Below are positions 42,691 through 59,000 of a stretch of DNA of 64,000 nt, in pieces (within the stretch, counting starts at the first letter, position 1; the number at the start of each line of letters is the position of its first letter). The DNA is from an uncultured Phycisphaerales bacterium (GTDB lineage: Bacteria > Planctomycetota > Phycisphaerae > Tepidisphaerales > Tepidisphaeraceae), in assembly GCA_963844715.1 (NCBI GenBank), contig CAWJPJ010000006.1:608001-672000 (forward strand), written 5' to 3'. The translations under genes were made by a program, and so were the position numbers. Under the pieces are notes generated by a model, which did not search any database, was not told where the DNA came from, and saw nothing but the letters and a program-made list of their open reading frames with translations.

Positions 42691-43743
42691 TTAGTGATTG
42701 GCAGTCGGATCCCAGCCGCCGAGGACCTCCGTGATGGTCGTCGCGGCGGCTTCTTCATCCGTCAATTGCCTGGACCACGGAACGCGTTTGTCCGGGTTTG
42801 CGCCGGGGCCGATGCTTTTATATTCGGCGTATCTGACGGTGTGAATTCTTTGCGGAACGCTCTTCCACGGTGACCAGCCGGCGGGGTTGATCTGCGGGCC
42901 CATCCAGCAATTCATATAAATCGCCGCGGCAAAGTCGCGCCAAGGGCGGCCCAGATAAACTGAGCCGTCTTTCACGTCGTCGGCAGCCGTGAGCTTGCAG
43001 TTCATGAAGACGTACCCGTATTCGGCGGTCTTCAGTGTTGAACCCGCGGTGAGATAGCCCGCGTGTTTGGAGTGAATTTCGCAGTCTTGGAAGACGGCCG
43101 TCGAATTTCCGAAGATGAAATCTACCGTTCCCTCGATGTAGCAATTTTCGAAGTAGAGGCGGTTGGTCCATGAAGCCGTGGGGGCCACGGTGGTCGCGGG
43201 GCCGTGGGTGCCGGGGATAGAGGGCCGGGTATCGCCCTGCGTGAGAGGGGGCGGCCCGCCGTTGGTGAAGAGAGTGTCCACCAAGCCGACGAATCGGCAC
43301 CGGCGGAAAATGTCGCGATCCCCTTCGGCCGCAATCGCCACGGCCTGCGAAGAATTTGGCGGCGTGGAATTCGCGAAGGTCAGATCATCCGCTTCAAATT
43401 CCGCCGAGCGAATGGTCGTGCTCGCGCTCCGCGCCGTACCGATGGGAATGCCATTGGGGCCGGCGGTGTTGTGCTGGAGATTGAAGACCAGCACGGTCGC
43501 GGCGGCGTCATCCCCGTACATTCGAATCGGCGGCTTGTCGTAAGCGACGGTAATGTGCTCCGTGTAGGTGCCCGGCTTCACGTGAATCACCACCGGCTTG
43601 GGCCCGGCGGGGATGGAATCGATTGCCTGTTGAATGGATGTGAATTTTCCAGTGCCGTCCGCGGCGACTGTGATGGTTTCAGTCGACGAACAGGCCGAGA
43701 GAAAAAGAAAAAGCAAAGCCGAGAGCCCGCCCAGGCGTTTCAT
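42691..43743 (-). CDS. Pectinesterase family (CE8) lipoprotein
   Basis: Lipobox LSAC; VAADGTGKFTSIQQAID, QAVA, DFIFG and YLGRPW. Confidence 0.9.
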   Translation of the reverse strand: MKRLGGLSALLFLFLSACSSTETITVAADGTGKFTSIQQAIDSIPAGPKPVVIHVKPGTYTEHITVAYDKPPIRMYGDDAAATVLVFNLQHNTAGPNGIPIGTARSASTTIRSAEFEADDLTFANSTPPNSSQAVAIAAEGDRDIFRRCRFVGLVDTLFTNGGPPPLTQGDTRPSIPGTHGPATTVAPTASWTNRLYFENCYIEGTVDFIFGNSTAVFQDCEIHSKHAGYLTAGSTLKTAEYGYVFMNCKLTAADDVKDGSVYLGRPWRDFAAAIYMNCWMGPQINPAGWSPWKSVPQRIHTVRYAEYKSIGPGANPDKRVPWSRQLTDEEAAATTITEVLGGWDPTANH

Positions 43744-43810
43744 CGATACAGCGCGCGACGCTGTCTCGAGGGCGTACCGCCGCGTGTTGCCCCGCGGCTC
43801 CCGGTTTTTT

Positions 43811-43930
43811 TCCCCTCTCCCCATGTACTCATGGGGAGAGGGCCAGGGTGAGGGGCGATTTTTTTTGGAGCGTCGAATCCCGCCCCTCACCCCAACCCGC
43901 CGTGCCGGAACTAAAGGAGTGGGCGAGGGG
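43811..43930. repeat. REP-like family A doublet between the pectinesterase genes
   Basis: CCCCTCTCCCC...GGGGAGAGGGCCAGGGTGAGGGG ... CCCCTCACCCCAACCC. Confidence 0.85.
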
Positions 43931-43973
43931 ATTAATGCTGTGCATCCATTAACGATTTCCCGTCCGGATAGAC

Positions 43974-45110
43974 TCATTGCGCACTCGCACCCGACGGACT
44001 TGAGGAGGGATTCCAATGGTCCTCGCCGCCGAGCACCGCGGGAATGGTGATCGCCGCCGCCTCATCGGCAGTCAGCTGCTTCGACCATTTCACGCGCTTG
44101 TCCGGGATTGCGCCCGGGCCGGTGCTGCCATACTCGGCGTAGCGAACCGTATAAATGCGATTCGGTGCGGACTTCCAGGGGAACCAGCCGTCGGGGCTGA
44201 TTTGCGGGCCCATCCAGCAATTCAAATAAACGACGTTGGCATATTGGCGCCACGGGCGCCCGAGATAGACGGAGCCGTCCTTCACATCGGGCGAGGCGGT
44301 CAATTTGCAGTCTATGAAAACGTACCCGAAGGGCACGCCGCGCACCGTGGAGGCCGCCGTGAGATAGCCGTGGCGCTTGCTGTGGATCTCGCAGCGGTTG
44401 AAGACGGCAGTCGAGTTGCCGAAGATGAAATCGACCCCGCCCTCGATGTAGGAATCTTCGAAATAGAGACGATTGGCGGGGGCAGCCGGTGCAACGGGAG
44501 CCGTGGCGGCCGGCGCACCCCCGGCCGGGATGGGGGCCTCGGCGCCGGGCGACGATCTGCCGTTGGTGTAGATCGTGTCCTGCCACCCCAGGAATCGGCA
44601 GCGGCGATAAATCTGCCTGTCGCCCAGACACGAAATCGCCAGGGCCTGTGAAATGTCCCGAGGAGTGGAATTGGCGAAGGTGACTTCATCCGCCTCGAAA
44701 TCATCGGCATAAGCCACGACGCTGGCGGTTTTAAAGGTTCCGATTTTCTTTCCATCCGGCCCGAGCTTATTCGCCTGGAGATCGAAGGTCAGGATCGTCG
44801 TCTGCGCGTCGTCGCCGTAAACGCGAATCGGCGGTTTATCGCGCGTGATGGTGATGTGCTCGGTGTAGGTGCCGGGCTTGACGTGAATCGTCGCCGGAGC
44901 GGAGCCGGGCATGATGGAATCGATCGCGGCCTGGACCGTCTTAAATTGTCCGGTCCCGTCGGCGGCAACGACGATTTCCGGCGCCGGCTTGGGCACGTTG
45001 CTCACGTTGCTATTGCTGGCGCCGGTGCTGTTGCTGTTGCTGGCACACCCGACCGCGCCAACGATCCAAATCGCGGCGACGCTGCAAACGGCAAGGGTTC
45101 TACCTCTCAT
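43974..45110 (-). CDS. Pectinesterase family (CE8) lipoprotein
   Basis: Lipobox AVGC; QALA, GWQDT, DFIFG and YLGRPW; true start at MRGRTL inside the long 43974..46550 ORF. Confidence 0.9.
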   Translation of the reverse strand: MRGRTLAVCSVAAIWIVGAVGCASNSNSTGASNSNVSNVPKPAPEIVVAADGTGQFKTVQAAIDSIMPGSAPATIHVKPGTYTEHITITRDKPPIRVYGDDAQTTILTFDLQANKLGPDGKKIGTFKTASVVAYADDFEADEVTFANSTPRDISQALAISCLGDRQIYRRCRFLGWQDTIYTNGRSSPGAEAPIPAGGAPAATAPVAPAAPANRLYFEDSYIEGGVDFIFGNSTAVFNRCEIHSKRHGYLTAASTVRGVPFGYVFIDCKLTASPDVKDGSVYLGRPWRQYANVVYLNCWMGPQISPDGWFPWKSAPNRIYTVRYAEYGSTGPGAIPDKRVKWSKQLTADEAAAITIPAVLGGEDHWNPSSSPSGASAQ

Positions 45111-45227
45111 CAATCGATCCTCCTCGTGGGAGGAATGATAGCTTTGACGGGCGTGAGCCGGTAGGCCTGATGTCGATGATCCTCTTGCACTTTTGGCCGG
45201 GAGGATTGCAACAGTAAGATACCCCCC

Positions 45228-47417
45228 ATGCCTCGAACCGCGACCGCGTTTGCTCTCATCCTGCTGTTTCCCGTCTTTGCCCTGGCCGATGTGAATTCGA
45301 TCGGAATGAACTTGACCCAGGTTCCGGCGGACACATTTCTGATGGGCTCGGACAAACCCGGGACATTCTGGGACGAACAGCCGGTGCATCGGGTGACGAT
45401 CTCCCAAAGCTTCTATGTTTCCGATCTGGTGACGATTGACCAATATCGGAAATTCAAGCCGGACGCGGCGCTCAATAACGCCTGCGCGCCCTACGCGGCG
45501 GGGATGAGCTGGTACGACGCGACGGCGTTTTGCGCGTGGCTTTCGAAAGTGGAGAAGAAACCTTATCGGCTGCCGACCGAAGCGGAATGGGAATACGCTT
45601 GCCGCGCGAACCCCGGGATGATCGGGTTTTCGCAGTGGTGCCAGGATGGGTACGGTCCCTATCCCTACGAGGATCAGATCGACCCGGTGGGTTATGCGGA
45701 CGGGCGCGTGAAAGTGATCCGCGGGGCGTATCTGGATGAGCCGAGCAAGTACAGCAATCCCAAGGATTATTTGAATCCGTTTTCGCGGGAAGGGATGCCG
45801 CCAAATTTTGGGCCGATTGGGCCGTTCGGATTGCATCGCATCGGGTTCCGCGTGGTCCAGGCTGATCCACCGGCGGGAAATCCTCTCCCTTTTATTCCCC
45901 CCTACGCCCGGCAAGGGGTGAAGCAGACCGCGGACTTCGTCGCGCTCGGGCCCGACCCCAGTAAACCTTACTTCCGCAAACGGCGGATGCTGCCTATCCC
46001 GCCGGAGGACAGTTCGGATGAACTGATTCGTCACGCGGGGCTCGATCCATCGTTTCGGCATCACAATCACAGCCCAGGCTTGGAGATTCTTCCCAATGGG
46101 GACGTTCTCCTGATCATTTACACCTCTCACAACGAATACGAACCGGAGGTGAGCCTGATCGCATCCCGGCTGCGCTTCGGGGCCGACGAATGGGACTTCC
46201 CCAGTCCCATGTTCGACACGCCCGGCGCCAACGATCACGCCCCGCTGCTCTATAACGATCGCGGCACGCTCTATCTGTTTTGGGGCAATCCATACGCCTG
46301 GGGACATTTCCCGTTTAATTTTGTCACCAGCGTGGATAACGGCGCGGATTGGTCGGGCGTGAAATATCCCGAGGTTGTAGGGCCGATCGGGAACCTCGGG
46401 CGGCCGCAGCCGATTAATACGGTGATTCGCGATTCGATCGGCACGATGTATGTCCCGTCGGATAACGAAGGGGCGCACGCGCTTCTCTGGGCAACCGACG
46501 ATAACGGAAAAACCTCGCGCGATACGGAGGGCAGAACCGGCGGACGGCATACGACGTTCGTCATGCTCAAAGACGGCACGATTCTGGGACTCGGCGGAAA
46601 GGACTCGGATATCAACGGCTATATGCCGGAGTCGGTGTCACATGATGGCGGGAAGAACTACGAGATTTCCGCATCGCCGTTCCACGCCCTGCGGAGCGCG
46701 CAGCGGCCCTGCGTGATTCGGCTTCACAGTGGACGCATTCTCATGGCCGGAGATTGGCGGGCCAGCAAAGGCCCGGCGGCCACGCGATTTTCCGAAAACG
46801 GCTGCTACGTCGCCCTCTCCGACGACGAAGGAAAAACCTGGCATTTCAAAACCCTCCCCGGCACCCAGGCCGGCAAGCATGGCTCGGACACACTCGGCTA
46901 CTGCGTGGCCCGCCAAGCCCCAAATGGGGACATTCACCTTATTACAACTCTCACCCACCCGGCACTCGATCTCGAATTCAACGAGGCATGGATTCTCAGC
47001 GACGATACGGAGACGGACGAATCGAAAATCACGGCCAACTCAGCTACGGCAATTCACGACGTCCGCGATTACCGCGAGGATTACCCCGACGGGTCGCCAC
47101 GAATTACCTGGAGCGCGGGGATCGGGAACGATGGCAGATATCTGCTGGAGGGACCGGAAACGTGGTATTACCCCTCCGGCGTCTTCCAGCGGCAAGCCGC
47201 CTATCACCTCGGCAAAAAAGTCGACACCGAAAATTACTTTTCGCCTGACGGCATCCCCGTCTGGCAATGGGAATACAACGCGGACGGCACGGCCGATTAT
47301 TCGACTTGGTATCCCAACGGAAACCTGCGATCGCAATCAAAGTGGAAGGATATGGAAATGATTCCCAAGAGCGATCGGTTTTATGAATACCCCGGAAAGT
47401 TGTCCGTGGAGCCGTAG
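45228..47417 (+). CDS. Secreted protein: FGE-sulfatase (SUMF1) domain + BNR/sialidase-like propeller + MORN-like repeats
   Basis: Signal peptide; FLMGS, RLPTEAEWEYACRA and IGFRVV; Asp-box-like SVDNGADW, TDDNGKTS, SHDGGKNY and SDDEGKTW; WYPNGNL repeats. Confidence 0.82.
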   Translation: MPRTATAFALILLFPVFALADVNSIGMNLTQVPADTFLMGSDKPGTFWDEQPVHRVTISQSFYVSDLVTIDQYRKFKPDAALNNACAPYAAGMSWYDATAFCAWLSKVEKKPYRLPTEAEWEYACRANPGMIGFSQWCQDGYGPYPYEDQIDPVGYADGRVKVIRGAYLDEPSKYSNPKDYLNPFSREGMPPNFGPIGPFGLHRIGFRVVQADPPAGNPLPFIPPYARQGVKQTADFVALGPDPSKPYFRKRRMLPIPPEDSSDELIRHAGLDPSFRHHNHSPGLEILPNGDVLLIIYTSHNEYEPEVSLIASRLRFGADEWDFPSPMFDTPGANDHAPLLYNDRGTLYLFWGNPYAWGHFPFNFVTSVDNGADWSGVKYPEVVGPIGNLGRPQPINTVIRDSIGTMYVPSDNEGAHALLWATDDNGKTSRDTEGRTGGRHTTFVMLKDGTILGLGGKDSDINGYMPESVSHDGGKNYEISASPFHALRSAQRPCVIRLHSGRILMAGDWRASKGPAATRFSENGCYVALSDDEGKTWHFKTLPGTQAGKHGSDTLGYCVARQAPNGDIHLITTLTHPALDLEFNEAWILSDDTETDESKITANSATAIHDVRDYREDYPDGSPRITWSAGIGNDGRYLLEGPETWYYPSGVFQRQAAYHLGKKVDTENYFSPDGIPVWQWEYNADGTADYSTWYPNGNLRSQSKWKDMEMIPKSDRFYEYPGKLSVEP

Positions 47418-47422
47418 CCATC

Positions 47423-47785
47423 TCAAATGTTCTGGATCGCAGCGAAACAAGCGCCGACCAGCAATATTCCGGCGAACAATCCCGCAAATAGGCCCAGAAC
47501 GAATGGAACCATACCGCGGCGATTAGCGCTAATAGCCAGGAGGAGCAAAACTATCACCAGGGACCCAAAGAAGACGAGGACAAGCGCCCCCGGAACGGAA
47601 TTGGTGGCCGATGCCATAAACAGCACCGCGACGCCGACCACTATCGCGCCGACGACCAATCCAGCCATAAACTGCGCTGCGAGTCGACAGCCGCCGGGCG
47701 GTGCGCCTTCCTCGCCCACGTTGGACCGTTTCGTCCCGTAGCCTAAGAGAATCGGCTGGCGATGTTCGGGCGGCTTTTCGTCCAT
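47423..47785 (-). CDS. Small 3-TM membrane protein, paralog 3, C-terminal LLVGACF
   Basis: MDEKPP start, three hydrophobic segments, Cys codon at 47447-47449. Confidence 0.8.
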   Translation of the reverse strand: MDEKPPEHRQPILLGYGTKRSNVGEEGAPPGGCRLAAQFMAGLVVGAIVVGVAVLFMASATNSVPGALVLVFFGSLVIVLLLLAISANRRGMVPFVLGLFAGLFAGILLVGACFAAIQNI

Positions 47786-47809
47786 GTCTCGGCCTTGGGG
47801 GCTAGCGCG

Positions 47810-48133
47810 TCACCGTCCAATCCTCAGAGGTGCGATGAAGCAGACTCCTTGAAGCAGGAGCCCCAGACACATTCCGCAAAGCAGGCCTTGAGTAAACGGT
47901 GCAATCTTGCGGCGCGACCGGACCATCCAGACGATGAAACCCACGACGGCGACCCCAATTAATCCGAGTACAATCCAACCGACCAGGAGCGAGCCGGTTC
48001 CCCCGGCGGAGAAGCTGGCTACGCAGATGACCGCCACGAACCCGCAAAAGACGCCGCCAAGGCCCGTCGCAAGGGAGAGGCATCCGCTCGGGTCAGGCAT
48101 GCCATAATCGAGAACCGGCGGTTTTTCGTCCAT
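47810..48133 (-). CDS. Small 3-TM membrane protein, paralog 2, C-terminal LLQGVCF
   Basis: MDEKPPVLDYG start, three hydrophobic segments, Cys codon at 47840-47842. Confidence 0.8.
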   Translation of the reverse strand: MDEKPPVLDYGMPDPSGCLSLATGLGGVFCGFVAVICVASFSAGGTGSLLVGWIVLGLIGVAVVGFIVWMVRSRRKIAPFTQGLLCGMCLGLLLQGVCFIAPLRIGR

Positions 48134-48150
48134 GAGTTTTCCCCAGCGCC

Positions 48151-48484
48151 TTAAATATTACTGTTGGAAAGAGCGACGAAGCAGACACCTATCAAAAGAA
48201 TCGGGACGAAAACCGCTCCCGTCAAAAGGCCCAAATAGAAAGGTCCGAGTCGCCGGCGCGCTGCGCGTGATCCAGAAATTAATCAGAATCGCCGCGGCCA
48301 GTACCGGAACAAGAACCCACAGCGGATTGCCTACCACCCCAGCAAGGATGAAGAACGCACCGGCTATCCCGCCGGCTCCCAGGAAGGCGCCCGCGAAGAA
48401 AGGACCAACCGCGCCGCCCTGCCGCGGCACCGGAACGACCGCATAATCAAGCGTGGGCGGTAGCGGCGGCTCTTCGTCATCCAC
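48151..48484 (-). CDS. Small 3-TM membrane protein, paralog 1, C-terminal LLIGVCF (after correcting an extra base at ~48230)
   Basis: MDDEEPP...LDYA start; removing one base in ggccc (48228-48232) gives FLFGLLTGAVFVPILLIGVCFVALSNSNI*. Confidence 0.75.
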
Positions 48485-49926
48485 GATTCTCTCCCCCGAT
48501 CGAAATCGGCGTCAGCCGATCCCGCATTCCATCGTGCATGGCCTGCAATTCCGCGAGACGGCCGCTCTTTCCGTCGCGGTAAAACAAATTGTACGTGTCA
48601 AAGGGGATGATCCGCCCGTCCGGGTGGGCGATGTGGACGCAGGTTTTCTTGACGCCTGCGCACATCAAAATTCCAGGCGTCCAGAAACTGCATGATGATG
48701 ATCCGAAAAATGTTGTCGTAAGTAACGGCCGAGGGAGCGGCGACCTGAGGGAGGCAGCACAAAAGCTGGCGCAACGACAATTCCGAACTCTGCGGGGAGG
48801 CGGCAGTGGAAAACAATTTGAAAAGTTCGGCGCGAAGGCGCGGATCGCGCTCGTAGACGATGGTGTTGCCTTCCCCGTGAAGCAGGACTTTGGGATCGAT
48901 CAGACCGGTGAGGGGAACCACCGAGCCGTTGATCTTCAGAGCGTAAGCCATAGCCAGACAATCGGGGTGGCACGGAACCGGGATCACGTCGGCGGGCTTG
49001 AAGACTGAGGATTGGGAGAGGATGTTCTGGCGAATTTCGCCGAGAGTGAGGCGGTCTTTTTCGGGGTCGAAAGCTTCCAACCGGCCGGCGATTTGAATCG
49101 GCTGAAACGTGATGCCACGGACGCACTTTTGCTTCAGGGCGAAGTCGATGAGGTCGCCGATCTCGTCGTCGTTCAATCCCTTTTTTAGAGTGACGACGAG
49201 GGTGGTGGAAATATTGTGCTCATTGAGGCGATCGAGGGCGCGGCGGCGGACGTCGGACAAATCGCTTCCGCGCAGAACGCGCAATGGGTCCGGGCGCTGG
49301 GAATCCCACTGCAAATAAACCTCGAAACCCGGCATGTAATCCTTCAGGCGGCGCGCGAAATCCGCATCGGAGGCGATCTTCACGCCGTTCGTGTTCACCA
49401 TCAGATGCTTGATGGGGCGGGCCCTTGCGGCATCGAGGACGGCAAAAAAGTCCGGATGAATCGTCGGCTCCCCGCCGCTGATTTGGACAACGTCGGGCTT
49501 GCCTTCGTTACGCACGACGCAATCAAGCATGAACTCGATCTGTTGCATGCTCCGATGCTCAAGCCGATGCGGCGAGGATTCGCTGTAGCAGACGGGGCAG
49601 GTGAGATTGCACTGGTCGGTGATCTCAACGAGCGTGAGGCAGCTGTGCTGCTCGTGATCGGGGCACAATCCGCAATCGTACGGGCAGCCATAGCGGATCG
49701 GGGTGTTGAACTTGAGCGGCATCTGTCCGGGTTTGAGAGTCTGGCGCGAGAGCTTGTAATATTCCGCATCGGTTGAAATCAGCACCCGCTGATATTTGTG
49801 CTGGGGGCACCATTTCTGGAGATAGACCCGGTCGTCCTGAATGATGACCTTGGCCTCGACGCGCCGCAGGCAGGTCGAGCAAATGCTGTTGGTCAATTCG
49901 TAAAAGAGATAGGGGCGATCAGGCAT
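48477..49926 (-). CDS. Radical SAM protein, tetraether synthase (Tes/GDGT-MAS, MJ0619)-like family (frameshift ~48655)
   Basis: N-terminal CSTC...KWCPQH, GCPYDCGLCPDH, radical SAM CNLTCPVC, SGGEPT, NTNG and PCHPDC; C-terminal FLDAWNFDV..VKKTCVHIAHPDGRIIPFDTYN. Confidence 0.85.
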
Positions 49927-50680
49927 GAACCACCTCGGCGGGCTGACCGGCGGGCTTCCGTAAAAGATTACGCACAGCGCACGCAGCGGCGATGAAGCTG
50001 ACCATCTGAATCGGGCTTAACCCGAAGTATGTTTCGCGCGGCTTGATGAACTCAATCAGGAACCGCCAGGTGAAATAGGAGAAGACAAACCACTGAAACA
50101 TCCGGCCCGGGGTGCGCGGCTTTTGGAGGTAGAACAGAAACACGGCCATCATGACGATGCAGTAGCCGATTTCGTAAAGCTGAGTCGGGTGGCGTGGGAT
50201 GCCGTCGCCGAAATCGACGCCCCAGGGGAGAGACGTGGCAATGCCGTAGGTGTGATCGGGTAACCCCTCGAGAAAACAGCCGACCCGCCCGATGGCCAGG
50301 CCCAGCAGGATGGGGAAGACGAAGCGGTCGCCGGTGGATTGTTTGATGCCGGTAAAGTGTTTTGCGATTTCGACGCCGAGCCAACCGCCGGCGAGGCCGC
50401 CGACGATGGTTTTTCCGCCGAGCAAAAGTCGCGGCTGGTTATAGACGGGCCAGTAGGCGTGAATCGACTCGACAATGGCCAGGATCTTCGAGCCCAGCGC
50501 CGCTCCGGCAAGGCAGCCGACGATGATCCAGAGCCCGGTTTCATTGTTCAACCGCGGGCCGGGGAATTTTTTTCGCGTGATCGAAAAAAGAATCCCCCCG
50601 GCGATGTACCCGGCGGTTTCCATTACCTGATGCGCCTCGATGGCCACGCCGAACGGATGGAAGACAACCGGAAAAGTCAC
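49919..50680 (-). CDS. Prolipoprotein diacylglyceryl transferase (Lgt)-like protein, divergent
   Basis: IGRVGCFLEG...YG, LPWGVDFGDG, RHPTQLYE and WRFLIEF; multi-TM. Confidence 0.85.
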   Translation of the reverse strand: MTFPVVFHPFGVAIEAHQVMETAGYIAGGILFSITRKKFPGPRLNNETGLWIIVGCLAGAALGSKILAIVESIHAYWPVYNQPRLLLGGKTIVGGLAGGWLGVEIAKHFTGIKQSTGDRFVFPILLGLAIGRVGCFLEGLPDHTYGIATSLPWGVDFGDGIPRHPTQLYEIGYCIVMMAVFLFYLQKPRTPGRMFQWFVFSYFTWRFLIEFIKPRETYFGLSPIQMVSFIAAACAVRNLLRKPAGQPAEVVHA

Positions 50681-50739: not shown

Positions 50740-52812
50740 ATGAGCGCCATACCCTCGATCGATCGAAAGACACTCGTTCAAAGGCTCAACCCCGTCGTTC
50801 ATCGAGCCGATCCCTTTTCGGCGGCTCTCCGTCGGGAACGGCGAATTCGCATTTACATCGGACATCACCGGGCTGCAAACCTTTCCAGACGAATATCACA
50901 CGGATTTCCCACTTTGCACGGCCTCGCATTGGGGCTGGCATACAACCCCCCCGCCGCCAGGCGTCGATCCAATGAATTTCCGGTATGAGATTTACGACAC
51001 CTACGGGCGCAAAGTCGGCTATGCGACCAGCTCGCGCGGCCAGGAAACACTCTTCAACTGGATGCGGCAGAACCCGCATCGATTGCATCTGGGGCGAATC
51101 GGGCTCGAGTTGCTCAAGCCGGACGGTTCGGTGGTCACATCTTCTGACGATTTGACCCACGTTGAGCAAACGCTTGATCTCTGGTCGGGGTTGCTGCAAA
51201 GCAAATTCTCGCTCGGCGATTCTCGGCTCAGCGTTCTGTCGTGTGTTCATCCTGATTTGGATTTGCTCGCGGTTCGAGTTGAGTCGCCGCTGCTGCACGC
51301 GGGCGATTGCGCGTGATCGTTCACTTTCCTTACGCTTCGCCGGAAACGGATATGGCCGATTGGATGAGCCCGGATCGGCATACCACGACGCTGATCCTGG
51401 CCGCGAATTGGGCTCAGTTTCCGCGCAAGCTGGACATGGACGCCTATGGCGCCACGCTCGCGTGGTCCTCCGGCGGCCTGGGCCAAACCGATCCGCATCG
51501 GTTCGTGCTGATCTGTAATGATGCCGATGCGCTGGAATTTGCGATCCATTTTCAGCAACGGCCGACTAATCTGGATCTCCCCTCGTTTGGGGCGACGCGA
51601 GCCGCGGCGGCCGATCATTGGCAGAAATTCTGGAGCAGCGGCGCGGCCATCGATCTGACCAGCAGCACCGCCAAGGAAGCCCCGGAACTTCAGCGGCGAA
51701 TCATCCTCTCGCAATACGTCACGGCGCTGAACTGCGCCGGCTCTCTCCCCCCTGCCGAAACCGGACTGCTTTTCAATTCCTGGTACGGCAAGTTCCATTT
51801 GGAAATGCACTGGTGGCACTCCGTTCATTTCACCGCGTGGAATCGCCCCGAACTATTCGAGCGAAGCTTGGATTATTACCGGCGAATTCTGGGCGTTGCC
51901 TACGAGAATGCGCATCGTCAGGGATACGACGGCTGCCGGTGGCCGAAGATGGTCGGCCCGGACGGGCAGGAATCACCCTCTCCAATCGGCCCGGTGTTGA
52001 TTTGGCAGCAGCCTCATCTGATCTATTACGCGGAACTTTGCTATCGGCGAAAACCGACGGCCGAAACGTTGGATCGATGGAAAGAAATCGTCCTGGAGAC
52101 GGGGGAGTTTTTGTCGCAATACGCCTACCTCGACAAATCGCGAAATCAATATGTACTGGGTCCGCCGCTAAAAACGGTTTCGGAAAACACGGATGCGCAC
52201 ACGAATAAGAATCCCACGTTTGAACTGGCTTATTGGCGCTGGGGTTTGCAAACGGCGATCCAATGGCGGCAGAGATTGAATCTTCCGATTCCACCGCGCT
52301 GGACCGACGTGGTGGCAAAATTGTCCCCCTTGCCGCAGAACAACGGATTGTATCTTCTGCAAGAAGGGCTGCTGGACACATTCGACCGCTGGAACGTCGA
52401 TCACCCCGCGATGCTCGGAGCATTGGGAATGCAGCCGGGAGATGGCGTCGATCCGCAAATCATGGGGGCCACCCTCCGGAAAGTGCTGGACAAGTGGCAA
52501 TGGGATAAAGCATGGGGCTGGGACTTCCCCATGGCGGCGATGTCAGCCGCGAGAACCGGCCAACCGGAACTGGCGATCCAGGCCCTGTTCATCAACAGCC
52601 CGAAAAATCGGTTTCACCCCAACGGACACAATTACCAGCGGCCAAGCCTGACCGCTTATCTGCCAGGCAATGGAGCCCTGCTGGCCGCCATTTCACTGAT
52701 GGCGTGCGGTCTAGAGAAAGACCCGGCCAACGAGGCTTCAGGGTTCCCGAAAAATGGGAAATGGTCCGTTCGGGCGGAGGGGTTTCAGCGGTGGATGGCG
52801 CCTGAATCCTAA
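50740..52812 (+). CDS. Six-hairpin glycosidase, GH65-like (frameshifts ~50825-50870 and ~51305)
   Basis: RQNPHRLHLG, ETGLLFNSWYGKFHLEMHWWH, WPKMVGP, IWQQPH, NPTFELAYW, WGWDFP and YLPGNG. Confidence 0.8.
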
Positions 52813-53052: not shown

Positions 53053-56000
53053 CTATTTCGCAATCGTTCGGCGGCGGCGCCGTTTCAAAAGCACTCCCAT
53101 CGCACCCAAGGACAGCATCATACTGGTCGCCGGTTCCGGCAAAGCATCGATGCTAGTGGCTGCCACGCCGCTCACGGTTGGGTCGCCGTAAGCGGGATTG
53201 CTGAAGTCGAAATCCAGAACCGGATCGTTCGGCACGGAGGGAACTACGATTTCAAGCTGATACGCCGCCATCGCGCTCAGGTCGCCGGTATTTCCATTGC
53301 CTTCCTGTCCGTTCCCGGCCGAGTAATTTCCGGATGCGTCGTACCACGTGTAATCGAACGCGGTCAGATCGCTTTCCAAGCCCGTGAGGCTCTCTCCGCT
53401 GTCGAAGCTGAAGAAGAGGTCGATCGGATTGGACCCGAAGCTCGACGGATTGCCGTTCTGATCGTCAACCTGCATATACAGATAACCGGCTTCCGCGTTC
53501 AGATTCGTCAACGGCGCGGTCGTAAAGGTTCCGTTGCCGTTGTTGGTGACGTACATGGTGTAATTGTTCGTCGTTCCGCCGGCTTCGGGATTGGTGCCGC
53601 CCTGCGTTCCCTGAAGGAGTTGCCGCCCATAGGCAATGGCGTTGCTGTTGGTCGGAACAAGTTCGACCAGAGGGGCAACCGTCGGGGCGACAGTGACGGT
53701 GGCGGTCTGATTGTTGTTGTTATAGCCCTGGTAAGTGTCCTGGTCGCCGTAGGTGAAGCTGTACACTTGGCTCGCCGCAGCCGTGGAGCTGGCGGTGAAT
53801 GAACCGGTATACGTGGGGCTTGAAGCGCCCGCGGTGATCGTCGGCGTTCCGCTGAACCCACTGGTATATCCATTCCCATCCGCCGAGACACCCGACACCG
53901 CCGCGCCGTCGCGGAGCGCCGAGCCGTTCAGCGGGTTGCTGAGCGAATAGTTAAAGTCAACCGTCTGGCCCTGGGTGACGACCGGGTTGAGGATCTGATT
54001 GGGAATCGCGGCGTGATCGAATACCGATCCGGTGATCGTCGCCGTGACATTTGCGTTGCCAACCGCGCTGGCCCCGGGGAGCGACTGATCGTCGCCGGTA
54101 TTGAAGCTCACGTTGACGTTCTGCGTCCCGGCCGTGGAAGCCGCGTTAAAGGCGGCGGAGTAATCGCTGGAAGAGCCCGCGGAAATCACGCCGATGGTTC
54201 CGCCGCTGAGATTCGCGCTGGTCCCGCCGACCTGGAGGCCGGCGCGAGCCGCCCCACCGCCGTCGGTCGCGGCTGCGGCAAGGTTCACGTTCGCCGCCAG
54301 GGCGCCGGAGTTCACGAAGGCGTCAAAGTTGTTGCCCGCGGTAACCGTCGCCGAGGCCAAGGCATGGTCGAGGACGTTGACGGTGACGGTGCCAGTCTGC
54401 GAGCCACTAGTTGAGTTGGAGTCGATGACCGAGAAGGTACCCGTCTGACTCGCGCCGACAGCGGTGCCGTCGAATGACAATCCGGAATAGGGATTGCTAG
54501 TTTGCCCCGCCACGACCGAGCCATTGACCTGGCTGCCGACTACGTTGGAGACATTGGAAGTGTTGAACGTGACCGGGTCCGAGCCGGTCGGAGCAGTGTT
54601 CTGGATCGTGAAACTGAACGGATCGGTCCCGCCGGTGATAATCGAGCTATAGGTCGGCGTCGCGGTGATCGTGCCGATCGTTTCCCTGTGGACCAGATCG
54701 GTTTCACCGGTGTTCAACTCCAAGTGATACGCGGGGTTCGAGACGCCGGTAAGATTAAGTGTGGCAAACCCCCCGTTCGCCGCGAGGTTCGTGCCATGGC
54801 TGAGGGTCGTATAGGTCATCAGGGTGTATTTGCCCTGATCGAGCGAGCCGAGATTCAAGGCCAGGATGTCGCTCGTGCTGGAGGTGTTGAGTGTGCCGAC
54901 GACGGCGAGTTCGTCGTTATTCCCCGCGCCGACGCCGAGAGACAATTCGCTGTCCGCGCCGAAGGTTACGGTGTTGTTATGGCCGGTGGTGCCGACGCTC
55001 AACGTCGCCATCGACGTATTGGTATCGCCGGGCGAGAGAATTGCCAGGACGGTCCCGGATTTACCGGTGAGGGTCAACGTGTCATTGGTCGCCAGGCCGA
55101 TGGTTCCGGTGCCACCCAGCGTCGTGCTGGCGGTGATGCTGTTGGGAATGGAAACGTTGCCCAGACCAGAATCCGTCCCGTCAATATAGAGGGTTCCGGC
55201 GTCAATCGTGGTGGTCCCGGTGTAGGAGTCATTGCCGGACAGGAGCAGGACACCGCCGCCCTTTACGGTCACCGACTCGATGGTGTTGTTGAAGGGGATG
55301 AGGTTGGACGTGACGGCGAGGTTTACGCCGGGATAAAGGCCGCCGGAAACCGTCGCGGTGGCGATGTTAAAGGTCGTCGCCGACTGAATGCTGACGCTTC
55401 CGCCGCTGATCATCGCGGTCGTCGACGCGGCGTCGGTCGTAACGGCGGCGGCGTCGCTGGTGCCGAAGAGAGAGTAGTTCCCGCCCTGGGAGTCGCCGTT
55501 GTTTCCCAAAGCGGCGACCAGGGAGCCGCCGGTGAACGTCAGATTGGGCAGTGTGATGCGGTAGCTGGATGTCCCCAGATCGGTGACCGTTCCGCCGCTA
55601 ATGGCGATCGTTCCCGGGGCCGTGTCGTTCCAATAGCCGAACGCATCCGTTTCTCCGCCGATCAAAGTGCCGCCGGACTCAACCGTGGTGGTACCCGAAC
55701 CGAGGGCGGTATCGCCGGTGTTGAGGCTGCCGGCAACTTCAACCGTTCCATTAATAGTCAAACCGCCGGTGTAGGAGTTATTGCCGGTCAGCAGCAGCGT
55801 TCCTGCACCGGACTCGCTGATGCTGTGGCTGCCGGAGATTATGCCCCCGACGGTGAGCGTGCTTCCCGAGACGGTGACCGTCGGGTTAGTTCCAAGCGTG
55901 ACGGCGCCCGTGCCGAGATTCAGGCTGCTGGTCCCGCCGAAGGTGAAGCTGCTGTTCCAGTTCTGAGTGACGTTGTGGCTGAGGGTGATGGGGTTGCTGG

Positions 56001-59000
56001 TCGTGTTATCGAAGTTTCCGCCCGCGATCGTGAAGTTGCCCGTGCCGATCGCGGAGGCGCTATTGATATCGAGCGTGCCGGCGTCGAGGACAGTGCCACC
56101 GCTATAAGTATTCGTGTTGGAGAGAACCAGGGTGCCGGTGCCGGTTGCCATGGTCAGTATAGCGCCGGTGCCCCCGCTGAAGAGGCCGGTCTCGGCGAAA
56201 GTCATTCCGCTGGCGATGTTAAAGGTATCGGTGCCGGTGTTCAGTGTAACCGCTCGGCTGCCGGAAACGTTGCCCGTCGCGTTCAATGTGCCGCTGGCCA
56301 GTGTGATCCCGCCGGACGCGCCGAGGTTGCTGTCGCTGGAGATGCTGAGCGTGCCGGCATCAATGATCGTCCCGCCGGTGTAGGTATTGAGCCCGGAGAG
56401 AACCAGGGTGCCGGTGCCGGTCGCCATGGTCAGCGCGCCGCTCTGGCCAGTGACGTTGGCGATGACGCCGCCGTAATTCAGGGTCTGACCGCTGGCGACG
56501 TTGATCGTCCCGCCGGACGTTCCAAGCTGAATTCCGCGATCGCTGTCGAGGGTCAGGCTGGCGGTGTCCTTCAAGGTGCCGCCGGAGAACGTCAGGAAGT
56601 TCGCAACGGGAGTGCCGGCCGGCAGCGGTTGGGGGCCTAAATCGAGATCGTTGCTGATACTGAGCGTGCCGCTGGAGAGGTTCCATAAGCCGGAGTAGGG
56701 GTTGCTGCCGCCGAGGACGACCGTGCCCGCGCCGGCGATATTCATCGTGTCATTCGACGCGCCGGCGGAAAGATCGCCAGCGTCGATCGTGAAGTGTCCT
56801 GTCCATGCTGCTGGTTTTCAAAGTGAAAGTATCGCCCGCGGTTGCGTCCAGATTGATCGCGGCGTTTTCGACCGCCGTTGTTCCGCTGCCTTCCACCGCG
56901 CCGCCGCTGTTGAGGGTCGACCTGGGCAGTCGAGGTGATTCCGCCAAACTGAAGGGTGCCGCCCGTTTTCGACGACGGGAATCGCTGATCCGAGTGCGCC
57001 ATCTGGCGGTGACATTCCACAATTCCACTGTTGACGGTGACGCCGCCCGGTGAAAGAGTTGGATCCATCGGAGAGAGTGACTGTTCCGCTTCCGCTCATC
57101 GCCAGGCTGCCGCCGGTGCCGCTGATCAAGCCGGAAATATTCGGCGTGGTCTTGCTGTTATTCAAAGTCAGGGCGTTGCCGCCCAGGTTGACCGCGCCGG
57201 CGCCGGTGAGAGAGAGCAGGCTTTGATTCGGCGCCAAGGGCGAGCGTGCCGGGTGTTGGTGACATCCGCGGTGCCGCTGCCGAGCGCGCCGGTCGTATTA
57301 AGGTTTAGCGTTGAGCCGGGCTAACGGTGACGCGCGGTCCCGGTGACAAGAGAAGAGGCCGCTGTTCCCAATGTGGAAGAGCCGCTGCCGGAGAAGGTGA
57401 TCGTTCGCCCGTGCCGCCGTCGGCCAGCGCGCCGAGGGTGAGGGCTGTGCCGGTCGCGCGCGATGAAGGTGGCGTTGCCGGTCAGGGTGGTTGTGCCGAA
57501 GGTCAGACGCGGCCGTTCCGCTGGCGACGTTGGTCCCTTTTGCGAGGCTCAGGGTGTTGTGCGCCGATGGAGAGGGTGCCGAGGGTGTAGTTGACGCCCG
57601 CGCCGCTGCCGGCGAGGTCGGACGTAAGTGTCGAGGTCCGCCGAATGGTCGTGTTGTAGGCGGTGAGGGCTCCGCCGGTTTGAAGATCGAGGGTTCCGCC
57701 GTTCAAAACCACTGCGCCGGTTCCGAGAGAGGCGGAGTTTTGAGCCGCCAGTGTTCCGGCCGACACGGTAGTGTTGCCTGAATAGGTGTTGGCGGTGGTC
57801 AGGAAAAGCGTACCGGCGCCGGTGGCCAGGGTGAGGCCCCCGGTTTGCCCGGAGACGTTGGCGATCGTTCCGCCATAGGTGAGTGTTTTGGTACTGGCTG
57901 ACGTCGAACGTGCCGCCGGCGGTGCCGAGCTGTATTCCGCGATACTGGCTTAGGGCAAAGCTCGCGGTGGCGTCGAGGGTTCCGCCGCTAAAGGTGAGAT
58001 AGTTAGCCACGCCAGGGGAAGTCGGCGCGGCACCGAGATCGGTGTCAGCACCGATGCTCAGGGTGCCGGAACTCAGATTCCACAAACCAGCATAGGTATT
58101 GGCTCCGCCCAGGGTGATGGTTCCAGCGCCTGCGACGGTGATAGTGGAGGTGGACGCCCCGCCGCTCAGATCACCCGAATCGATGGTGAATGAATCGGAG
58201 GCGGTGCTGCTGGTTTCGAGGGTGAATGTGCCACTGGCCGTATTGGCGAGGATCATGGCCGCGTTTTGAACGGACGTTCCGCTGCCTTCAAGCAGCAGTG
58301 TCCGCGTCAAAAGTCAAAGCCTTGGTCGAAGTGATTCCGGCCAACTGCAACGTGCCGCCGTTGATGGTGGCGGTGCCGGTGCCCATCGCGCCAGCCGCGG
58401 TGATTTCAAGGGTTCCCCCGTCGACGTTTACGCCGCCGCTGAAGGAGTTCGACCCGTCGGACAGGATGTAGGTGCTAGATCCGGTCTCGGTGACAGCGAC
58501 CGTACGCAGCCCCGTGCCGTTGCTGATGGCGCCACTCAGGGTAACGACTCCGGCTCCAGTGCCAGTGAGGTTGAGCGTGGCGCCGGTGTTACTTCCGTTA
58601 TTTGTAAACGCGTTGGCGATGCTTTCATTGCTGGCGGAGCTTTGAGTGATGGTGGGATTGGCCTCGATATCAAAGGAATCGCCACCGAGGAAGAATGCGC
58701 CGCCGCCACTGCTGAAGGTCAGTGCTGGTGAAGATAAAGTCGTTGGCGATGTTGTTATCAAGGGGGATGGTGTTAGTACCAAGATTTTTTGTTCCCGCAA
58801 AGATGAGCGCCGTGGCCGTATTGGACGTGGGGGCAGTGCCGCCCCAGTTGCCGGTATTGCTCCAGTCGCTGGCAGTTCCACCAGTTCCGCCCCCGTTCCA
58901 GGTAAACGTCGCGGCCGATGCCGCGGCAGCGTTGGCATTGCCACCACACCCGCGATCGCCAGCGCCATAACCCCGGCGGCTTTGGCCTTACCTCTAAATG

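Follow-up and report, generated by a model that had tools for sequence, protein, structure and literature searches.

A widespread gene module that pairs an Lgt-like transferase with a Tes-like radical SAM enzyme and may attach lipid to small membrane proteins

Gene layout

Positions 47423 to 50680 of the window (the whole stretch of 64,000 nucleotides analysed here) carry a gene module that is widespread and uncharacterised, and that may well equip small membrane proteins with an unusual lipid. Gene linkage, protein folds, residue patterns and the position of one cysteine together make it quite possible, if a little short of probable, that the module serves specifically for S-lipidation with a lipid modified by radical chemistry. 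Its genes are the following:

49919..50680, minus strand: Lgt-like 7-helix membrane transferase of a divergent subfamily (253 aa, GTG start)
48477..49926, minus strand: Tes/GDGT-MAS-like radical SAM enzyme, with a one-base frameshift near 48655
48151..48484, minus strand: small membrane protein, paralog 1 (LLIGVC followed by 9 residues), with a one-base frameshift near 48261
47810..48133, minus strand: paralog 2, a small membrane protein of 107 aa with three helices (a basic patch and a hydrophobic helix, then LLQGVC and 9 further residues)
47423..47785, minus strand: paralog 3, a small membrane protein of 120 aa with three helices (a basic patch and a hydrophobic helix, then LLVGAC and 7 further residues)

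As an earlier note on this DNA had proposed, the five genes are co-oriented in one operon, and the Lgt-like and radical SAM genes overlap by 8 nt (ATGCCTGA). The 24-nt gap that it described is also present, but the 8-nt overlap of the radical SAM gene with paralog 1 (GTGGATGA) and the 17-nt gap exist only if the frameshifts are read through. The motif LLxG[AV]CF occurs in all three small proteins, in paralog 1 again only with read-through, but it is not terminal as had been thought: 9, 9 and 7 residues follow the cysteine. Contigs from public runs, all of low depth and from a single study, have one base fewer at both sites (48261 in runs X1 and X3; 48655 in run X3), and since these independent contigs lack the frame changes, both are probably assembly errors and true pseudogenes are unlikely. 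The C-terminus of the radical SAM enzyme is in frame in relatives, and the tail ORF (48477-48668) matches the Tes and TrsS models at their C-terminal end. Scans for promoters and terminators yielded no useful excess over shuffles (1 vs 1.2; 10 vs 5.3 +/- 2.6).

Conservation of the module

The three-part association is conserved in other genomes, and its two enzyme genes were linked in 69/80 loci in both search directions. When loci were picked by the radical SAM gene, an Lgt-like gene lay beside it in 69/80 (60/64 of those with 3 kb upstream), and when they were picked by the Lgt-like gene, a radical SAM gene lay downstream on the same strand in 69/80 (50/57 of those with 3 kb on each side). 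These loci span about ten phyla. Sampling 121 genomes evenly across the phylum gave a similar picture: 12/12 Lgt-like matches adjoin a Tes-like gene, and 13/14 close radical SAM orthologues have an Lgt-like neighbour. Among genomes in which the two genes stand apart, 4/5 and 3/3 had the missing one at another place, and in one locus (L089) the two enzymes are fused.

These counts bear on the plainest explanation, by which a spare housekeeping lgt, an unrelated radical SAM gene and orphan membrane genes are ordinary neighbours. The databases do label the subfamily simply as prolipoprotein diacylglyceryl transferase, and second lgt copies exist, for example MSMEG_5408, as given in the available text of two preprints (bioRxiv 10.1101/2025.03.27.645668; 10.1101/2025.01.07.631728). 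However, the reciprocal linkage, the fusion, the overlapping frames and the controls argue against such a coincidence, and the linkage counts largely refute it, leaving it highly improbable.

The radical SAM enzyme

The radical SAM gene contains domains PF04055 and PF23545 and matches the Tes structure 7TOL with E 1.2e-54. The suggestion that it is Tes-like was borne out: it scores 289 bits for Tes against 57 and 39 for MoaA/NirJ, which rules out the latter identity, and a model of an intact relative (L008) matches 7TOL with TM 0.80 and E 4.6e-35, keeping the four-domain fold. With Tes/GDGT-MAS (M. jannaschii MJ0619; 7TOL, 7TOM; NF045702) it shares the full-length fold, the rubredoxin-like CxxC...CxxH, the N-terminal cluster of 3Cys and 1His, and the CX3CX2C motif of the SAM cluster, the last in 61/61 sequences. 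The N-terminal and rubredoxin metal ligands named for Tes (PMC9433317) are retained, with Cys at 16, 19, 40, 81, 85 and 88 in 33/33, His 43 in 59/61 and His 91 in 61/61.

The C-terminal cluster of Tes, which the accessible part of PMC13459092 gives as 3Cys and 1Met, is not retained. Judging from that description and from their conservation, its ligands would include three C-terminal cysteines that are invariant in 12/12 archaeal Tes. The equivalent positions are Cys in 22, 0 and 0 of 33 family members, the two absent cysteines being S/T and D/E in all 33. The Met is found in 23/33, Tyr459 of Tes is replaced by Ile, and five new cysteines (positions 96, 319, 390, 391 and 429) are invariant across the family. 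Because two of the three Tes C-terminal cysteines are missing in 33/33 members, the tail-to-tail cross-linking of lipids envisaged by the earlier note is weakened and now appears doubtful; that the substrate is a lipid is itself assumed from the fold only.

By score and by phylogeny the family stands apart from its relatives. Three intact members reach 289, 293 and 263 bits with the Tes model NF045702 (cut-off 450), and 330, 335 and 313 bits with NF045646 (TrsS), the best-scoring NCBIfam model, which aligns over the full length at 330 bits but below its cut-off of 490; TrsS is thus a related, separate family. In a quick tree of 23 rows, the only kind of phylogeny used here, the family forms a separate clade outside Tes (SH-aLRT 100), and unlike the family, 12 archaeal Tes loci carry no Lgt-like gene within flanks of roughly 1.5 kb.

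An enzyme of this kind could in principle act as Tes does and be the missing bacterial enzyme behind membrane-spanning lipids (branched GDGT or iso-diabolic acid). The Tes fold and the retained cysteines of the rubredoxin, N-terminal and SAM clusters are consistent with this role, for which bacterial Tes homologues have been proposed (PMC8941075, in the text available). The Tes C-terminal cysteine set is lost, however, and two Acidobacteria examined contain a second Tes-like gene (L184, L185) that is a better candidate: it has all three C-terminal cysteines as well as the Met and the Tyr, and a quick tree places it with archaeal Tes (SH-aLRT 100, on a long branch). The module also occurs in cyanobacteria, Chryseobacterium and Paenibacillus, which to our knowledge are not producers of branched GDGT or iso-diabolic lipids. 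Further, the accessible part of PMC13159169 reports Tes homologues in only 3/14 Acidobacteria that produce iso-diabolic acid. We consider this role very unlikely.

The Lgt-like protein

The Lgt-like protein contains the Pfam LGT domain (PF01790, 94.6 bits vs a cut-off of 24.9) and misses all NCBIfam lgt cut-offs (best 65.5 vs 334; TIGR00544 40.8 vs 118.9). Its predicted structure (pLDDT 92.9) has the seven-helix Lgt fold; among 48,161 chains compared, E. coli Lgt (5azc) is the best match and alone reaches Z >= 8 (Z 13.7, rmsd 4.7, 234 aligned). Residues R143, G154, H196, Y235, R239 and E243 (E. coli Lgt numbering) are retained, while Y26H, H103V and N146C are changed. Comparison of the subfamily with E. 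coli Lgt (5AZB, 5AZC) gives the same picture: R143, G154, Y235 and R239 are invariant in 66/66 and 78/78 members and G142, G145, H196 and E/D243 are also shared, whereas Y26 is His in 64/66, H103 is Val in 62/66, M100 is Lys, and N146 is replaced by a new invariant Cys (66/66 and 78/78). At E151 the alignment is ambiguous, an invariant Asp/Glu standing one column off. The subfamily therefore departs from the published Lgt motif at Y26, H103 (or Y/W/F) and N146. In the available text of bioRxiv 10.1101/2025.03.27.645668 these three residues are essential in E. coli Lgt and a Y26H/N146C homologue is presumed to be of low activity; their replacement here counts against S-lipidation.

The second mycobacterial Lgt homologue MSMEG_5408 and the 'CD/CC' Lgt variants (10.1101/2025.03.27.645668; bioRxiv 10.1101/2025.01.07.631728) are the nearest described parallel: Y26H and N146C are also reported for MSMEG_5408, and a different lipid preference has been speculated for it. 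As described in the accessible text, neither a radical SAM partner nor a small-protein acceptor is given. The genome here does have a separate canonical lgt elsewhere, as the earlier note's reading needed, leaving the Lgt-like copy free to specialise. In a search for the subfamily, 7380/8000 candidates matched at E 1e-30 or better, a figure in which other Lgt types may be counted.

The same residues suit another pathway, in which both enzymes make a modified free membrane lipid, with the small proteins serving as transient carriers, scaffolds or regulators; the Lgt-like protein would then move diacylglyceryl to a non-protein acceptor, perhaps via its own invariant Cys135. Loss of the acceptor-side His and the new Cys at the N146 position fit this idea, as do the enzyme pair being the most constant unit of the module, fused in L089, and a sister locus (L170) in which the pair has no adjacent small gene, which also counts against S-lipidation. 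A free-lipid product alone, however, explains neither a cysteine at fixed depth in otherwise unrelated sequences nor the expansion to arrays of up to six small genes, and we regard it as unlikely.

The small membrane proteins

A phmmer search of 83,782 six-frame stretches of the genome confirmed that the three small proteins are true paralogs (paralog 2 vs paralog 3, E 9e-06 and 3e-07; the tail of paralog 1 vs paralog 3, E 2e-04) and found no further paralogs above the inclusion threshold elsewhere. Paralog 2 is one of two Cys-anchored matches among 9 genome-wide profile matches. Family searches were uninformative: paralog 3 has no Pfam or NCBIfam family, Pfam gave scattered matches only for 100 small proteins (<=3 members per family), NCBIfam gave none for 4, and an Atlas search returned unnamed clusters only (recognition 2234, below the Atlas mark).

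Across module loci, the small three-helix proteins share almost no sequence except the last helix (mean column identity 13%) and have a single Cys at its outer end. A Cys behind a hydrophobic helix is found in 121/147 module candidates vs 53/552 genome controls, with 3/25 and 4/36 in further controls; in 120/121 it stands behind the third helix, 1-13 residues from the C-terminus. A profile blind to the cysteine placed it at a Cys in 15/19 held-out matches, all on the operon strand and near the operon. The precursor array of the RiPP-like layout proposed earlier is a local feature, many loci having a single small gene; the small proteins have no conserved leader, and there is no peptidase among the five genes of the locus.

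The order of basic patch, some 20 hydrophobic residues and Cys resembles that of a prolipoprotein. The small proteins are not prolipoproteins with an N-terminal signal peptide and a mature protein after the Cys, and the canonical lipobox [LVI][ASTVI][GAS]C (consensus from the available part of PMC4728403) occurs at 0/120 sites, which counts against S-lipidation; the residue is small at -2 in 98/120 and bulky at -1 in 92/120. K or R is found at -25..-18 from the Cys in 114/120, and K, R or D within the helix in only 7/120; K/R frequency is 0.34 in the loop preceding the last helix vs about 0.05 in the first loop. By the positive-inside rule, basic residues mark the cytoplasmic side of a membrane helix, and with the basic patch 18-25 residues before it the Cys is predicted to lie on the outer face. 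Lgt meets its acceptor at that face (PMC4728403, in the text available), and the position of the Cys makes its lipidation plausible.

Other observations count against S-lipidation. A strict small-protein profile finds a match in only 15/74 distant loci (a looser small-ORF filter, at 53/80, lets in spurious frames and is set aside), and the small gene is absent from 7/75 loci of set 1. In displaced loci it stays with the radical SAM gene in 3/4 and is present in 0/8 Lgt-only loci; this ties it more closely to the radical SAM enzyme than to the Lgt-like one, a bias that gene order by itself could produce. A complex prediction for the Lgt-like protein and paralog 3 (residues 34-120) scored 0.00 and counts neither way.

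This tie would fit a direct partnership with the radical SAM enzyme, in which the small-protein Cys replaces the Tes cluster sulfur or ligand and traps the lipid-tail radical as a C-S bond, the Lgt-like protein serving to present, flip or release the lipid. Tes itself places its first radical on a C-terminal cluster sulfur (PMC13459092 section 2.1, in the part available), and at that cluster the family lacks two of three cysteines. However, the K/R bias places the Cys at the outer face, across the membrane from the cytoplasmic enzyme, and the family's five invariant cysteines could build a complete site of their own, so a direct trap seems quite unlikely.

Discussion

If the module is an S-lipidation system, the cytoplasmic radical SAM enzyme would take phospholipid into its Tes-like pockets and alter an acyl tail by H-abstraction; because its C-terminal cluster is rewired, the enzyme might yield something other than the tail-to-tail C-C bond made by Tes. 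The Lgt paralogue would bind the altered lipid through its R143/R239 pocket and pass the diacylglyceryl unit to the invariant Cys that caps the last helix on its outer side, an internal, C-terminal, non-lipobox acceptor unlike that of Lgt. On the acceptor side, Y26H, H103V and N146C may fit such a Cys, which the housekeeping Lgt would ignore, and the bulky -1 residue would block cleavage by signal peptidase II, so that the product would stay a three-helix inner-membrane protein carrying an unusual lipid. A bolder version, in which a radical-coupled macrocyclic or membrane-spanning lipid on the C-terminal Cys makes covalent protein-bolalipid rivets in about ten phyla, is doubtful.

Among described systems the lipoprotein-derived RiPP DybA/DybH comes close, with a small ribosomal product, diacylglycerol on Cys and a cytoplasmic metalloenzyme. 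It differs, in the accessible text of PMC13056109, in its canonical N-terminal lipobox, its use of the housekeeping Lgt/LspA/Lnt and an enzyme that modifies the peptide, whereas the module encodes an Lgt paralogue alongside a radical SAM enzyme of the lipid type. A literature search, mostly outside subscription journals and supplements, turned up no account of the module; the subfamily could be listed in Suppl. Fig. 5 and Table S7 of 10.1101/2025.03.27.645668.

The module offers a testable job for two orphan groups, a large set of bacterial Tes homologues left unexplained in the literature and a divergent Lgt subfamily annotated as ordinary lgt. For geochemistry it carries a warning, as its radical SAM clade is a poor marker for producers of branched GDGT, unlike the second acidobacterial Tes-like gene. 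Hosts such as Paenibacillus, Chryseobacterium and Nostoc are in culture, so a direct test is possible, and if the S-lipidation reading is true, Lgt chemistry would not be confined to lipobox signal peptides but would also reach multi-pass proteins and modified lipids.

A five-gene operon in the window

The window (G000:C6:608001-672000) contains five genes running in one direction, from 50680 to 47423 on the minus strand:

49919..50680, minus strand, Lgt-like gene
48477..49926, minus strand, radical SAM gene resembling archaeal tetraether synthase (Tes, or GDGT-MAS)
48151..48484, minus strand, small membrane protein, paralog 1
47810..48133, minus strand, small membrane protein, paralog 2
47423..47785, minus strand, small membrane protein, paralog 3

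On re-reading the window we recovered the tight operon first described, with two 8-nt overlaps and gaps of 17 and 24 nt. The motif that the earlier note had placed at the end of the three small proteins (LLxG[AV]CF) is present but not terminal, being followed by 6-8 further residues. Compared with 83,782 six-frame stretches of the genome, these proteins match only one another. The nearest relatives are Tepidisphaeraceae MAGs. Both in the window (47423-48484) and in Tepidisphaeraceae loci, the N-terminus of the small proteins, ahead of helix 1, is often acidic and rich in proline and closes with L-[DE]-Y or a similar sequence.

Two genes carry frame changes, near 48655 in the radical SAM gene and near 48261 in paralog 1. 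Public sequencing runs give contigs that are mostly ≥99% like the window and have one base fewer at 48261 (runs X1 and X3) and at 48655 (X3); these contigs are of low depth and all come from a single study, possibly the source campaign. Since, in addition, the radical SAM tail is in frame among relatives, we read both breaks as probable assembly errors.

Around the operon, a 729-aa protein with FGE-sulfatase, BNR and MORN-like parts (45228-47417, plus strand) is convergent with paralog 3, their stop codons lying 5 nt apart. A divergent gene at 50972-52812 (plus strand), with a faint match to glycoside hydrolase family 65 (E 0.07), is apparently split into ORFs of 114 and 501 aa, possibly by another assembly frameshift. 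A very long Gly/Thr-rich repeat protein (53053-58310, minus strand), whose tail we take to be PEP-CTERM-like, is broken into several ORFs, and two adjoining ORFs of similar sequence, presumably both pectinesterase-like, occupy 42691-46550 (minus strand).

Conservation of the module

Among the best 80 of 407 loci found through the radical SAM, 69 had an Lgt-like gene, lying upstream in the same orientation in 68 and on the opposite strand in one. Of the 64 loci with 3 kb or more of upstream DNA, 60 had it. Picking in reverse with an Lgt-like profile (best 80 of at least 557) placed a radical SAM gene downstream on the same strand in 69 of 80, and in 50 of 57 with 3 kb on each side; the two sets have 6 contigs in common. 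In the set picked by the radical SAM, 68 of the 75 loci with enough downstream DNA had, in the operon zone, a small membrane ORF whose last 25 residues include Cys. The proposed three-component association is thus conserved in other genomes and in both directions, these figures being counts rather than statistics because kin are not independent. Of 121 genomes drawn evenly from the phylum, 12 had the Lgt-like gene at E 1e-40, all with a Tes-like gene alongside, and 13 of 14 close radical SAM orthologues had an Lgt-like neighbour, the 14th lying near a contig start. One locus (L089) encodes a 753-aa fusion of both proteins. Split pairs do occur; the missing radical SAM gene was then found elsewhere in 4 of 5 genomes checked, and the missing Lgt-like gene in all 3. 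That the genes are neighbours merely by chance seems to us scarcely credible.

By record titles, the module occurs in Planctomycetota, Verrucomicrobiota, Acidobacteriota, Bacillota, Bacteroidota, Cyanobacteriota, Pseudomonadota, Gemmatimonadota, Chloroflexota, Eisenbacteria and Melainabacteria. Three archaeal bins (L111, L132, L134) also have it, with no Tes over cut-off in those bins. Lgt is reported absent from archaea in the accessible part of a preprint (bioRxiv 10.1101/2025.03.27.645668). These bins may be mis-binned, transfer being the alternative.

Several Phycisphaerae loci (L011:3531-4259, L016:2841-3506, L018, L021, L023 and L039) encode a membrane protein of 220-260 aa, weakly matching PF25323 (PilS-like TM), whose gene separates the Lgt-like gene from the radical SAM gene. 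P0046 has this protein joined to the Lgt-like one in a single fusion, and the Lgt-like frame of L009, at 485 aa, is similar in length.

A cysteine behind the last helix of the small proteins

Cys directly follows a hydrophobic helix near the C-terminus in 121 of 147 small membrane ORFs of the operon zone; the same filter gave 53/552 across the whole genome, 3/25 far from the operon and 4/36 on the opposite strand. A profile built from the first set with Cys unscored, which is insensitive (15 of 74 loci), made 19 matches in 74 held-out loci, all on the operon strand and near the operon, 15 of them with Cys at the position. This Cys is the sole invariant column among 100 aligned proteins, in rows picked for having it. 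In a set of 120 (one protein with a 29-residue tail was left out), we found a basic patch ahead of the helix in 114, a small residue at -2 in 98 and a bulky one at -1 in 92, and a canonical lipobox in none.

Mean hydropathy outlines three helices, and K/R are concentrated in the loop preceding the third. By the positive-inside rule, the Cys should therefore face outward, and with the basic patch and the flanking residues the last helix resembles a lipoprotein signal lying inside the protein, its box displaced by one residue. Where operons are split, 3 of 4 loci have the small gene beside the radical SAM gene, and none of 8 Lgt-only loci has one. A mechanism of direct capture, with a C-S bond formed on the small protein, we consider distinctly unlikely.

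The Lgt-like protein

The genome has a separate canonical lgt, as the idea of a dedicated enzyme had presupposed: PF01790 matched it with 249 bits and the window gene with 94 bits; a second paralogue, which is split, also matched on contig C7. The window gene is therefore not the housekeeping copy. The C7 gene (G000:C7:794002-794735; L003, L004), split by a frame change, is a third Lgt-family gene of a 'GCC' type, distinct from canonical lgt and from the window subfamily.

The predicted model of the Lgt-like protein (pLDDT 92.9) matched only E. coli Lgt (Z 13.7). In a residue map of 66 sequences (78 of 80 in a second set), R143, G154, H196, Y235, R239 and E/D243 (E. coli numbering) are kept, and Y26H, M100K, H103V and N146C are changed. 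According to the available text of PMC4728403, phosphatidylglycerol is activated in a pocket formed by R143 and R239, and H103 is on the peptide side. The 2025 preprint, in its accessible part, finds Y26, H103, R143, N146, G154 and R239 essential in E. coli and notes that Y, W or F may stand in place of H103. It also speaks of 'CD or CC' variants and gives Y26H/N146C, both shared by our subfamily, for MSMEG_5408 (bioRxiv 10.1101/2025.03.27.645668). From these residues, the donor side is predicted to be intact and the acceptor side altered, which would fit a different acceptor and also low or different activity. A free-lipid pathway, in which the small protein would not be the acceptor, we hold to be unlikely, if less so than direct capture.

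The radical SAM protein compared with Tes

The module radical SAMs fall short of the cut-offs for both Tes and TrsS; their scores are far above those for MoaA and NirJ, which rules out the latter identities. An intact relative (L008, 84% identical) is predicted to fold like GDGT-MAS (TM 0.80), residues 352-393 being poorly predicted, so the placement nearer Tes holds. We compared cysteines between 12 of the 19 archaeal Tes over cut-off and 33 hand-picked module members. Every N-terminal and SAM-cluster Cys is common to both. The C-terminal domain of the 12 Tes has three invariant Cys and one invariant Met, in agreement with the published 3Cys/1Met cluster, which takes up the first lipid radical on its sulfur (PMC13459092; PMC9433317; parts available). 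In contrast, module members have Cys at these columns in 22/33, 0/33 and 0/33, the last two being S/T and D/E; they keep the Met in 23/33, replace Tyr459 by Ile and have five invariant Cys of their own. Since Met439 and Tyr459 are dispensable in Tes, as the accessible part of PMC9433317 states, the cysteines bear the weight of the argument. The C-terminal metal site is probably still present but rebuilt. Of the proposal that this enzyme joins lipid tails, the Tes-like fold and shared clusters stand, but with two of three C-terminal Cys gone Tes-type coupling cannot be assumed, and a Tes-like synthase of membrane-spanning lipids is in our view very improbable.

Two Acidobacteria carry the module plus a second Tes-like gene (L184 in G125, L185 in G124) that keeps the three C-terminal Cys, Met and Tyr and clusters with archaeal Tes, its N-terminal cysteines aligning poorly; no Lgt-like gene was found in the 1.5-kb flanks. 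On these residues it is a better candidate than the module radical SAM for membrane-spanning lipids, and a candidate for branched GDGT synthesis. A sister system (L170:2141-4548, genome G003) pairs a radical SAM bearing Tes-type C-terminal Cys with a following 'GCC'-type Lgt-like gene and no adjacent small Cys protein, which may mean that the link to Lgt predates the rewired cluster. Another locus (L183, G043:C15:9000-24000) has three divergent Tes-like radical SAM genes in 15 kb, without an Lgt-like neighbour.

A putative lipidation system

The radical SAM should be cytoplasmic, since it lacks a signal peptide and L089 has it joined to the C-terminal end of the Lgt-like protein. With a Cys predicted to face outward, to the side where Lgt acts, the simplest order would be modification inside followed by transfer outside. 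The radical SAM would modify a lipid on the cytoplasmic side, the Lgt-like protein would transfer it to the outward Cys, and the lipidated protein would be left uncleaved. We infer every chemical step of this dedicated S-lipidation, which we favour tentatively; some probability is set aside for mechanisms not yet conceived.

A search of accessible main texts found no description of the module; related work drawn on, in its available parts, was PMC8941075, bioRxiv 10.1101/2025.01.07.631728 and PMC13159169. The nearest precedent in concept is DybA, a lipoprotein-derived RiPP that, by the accessible text, uses the housekeeping pathway (PMC13056109). The parts are variants of known families, no known system combines them, and the function of the module is putative.
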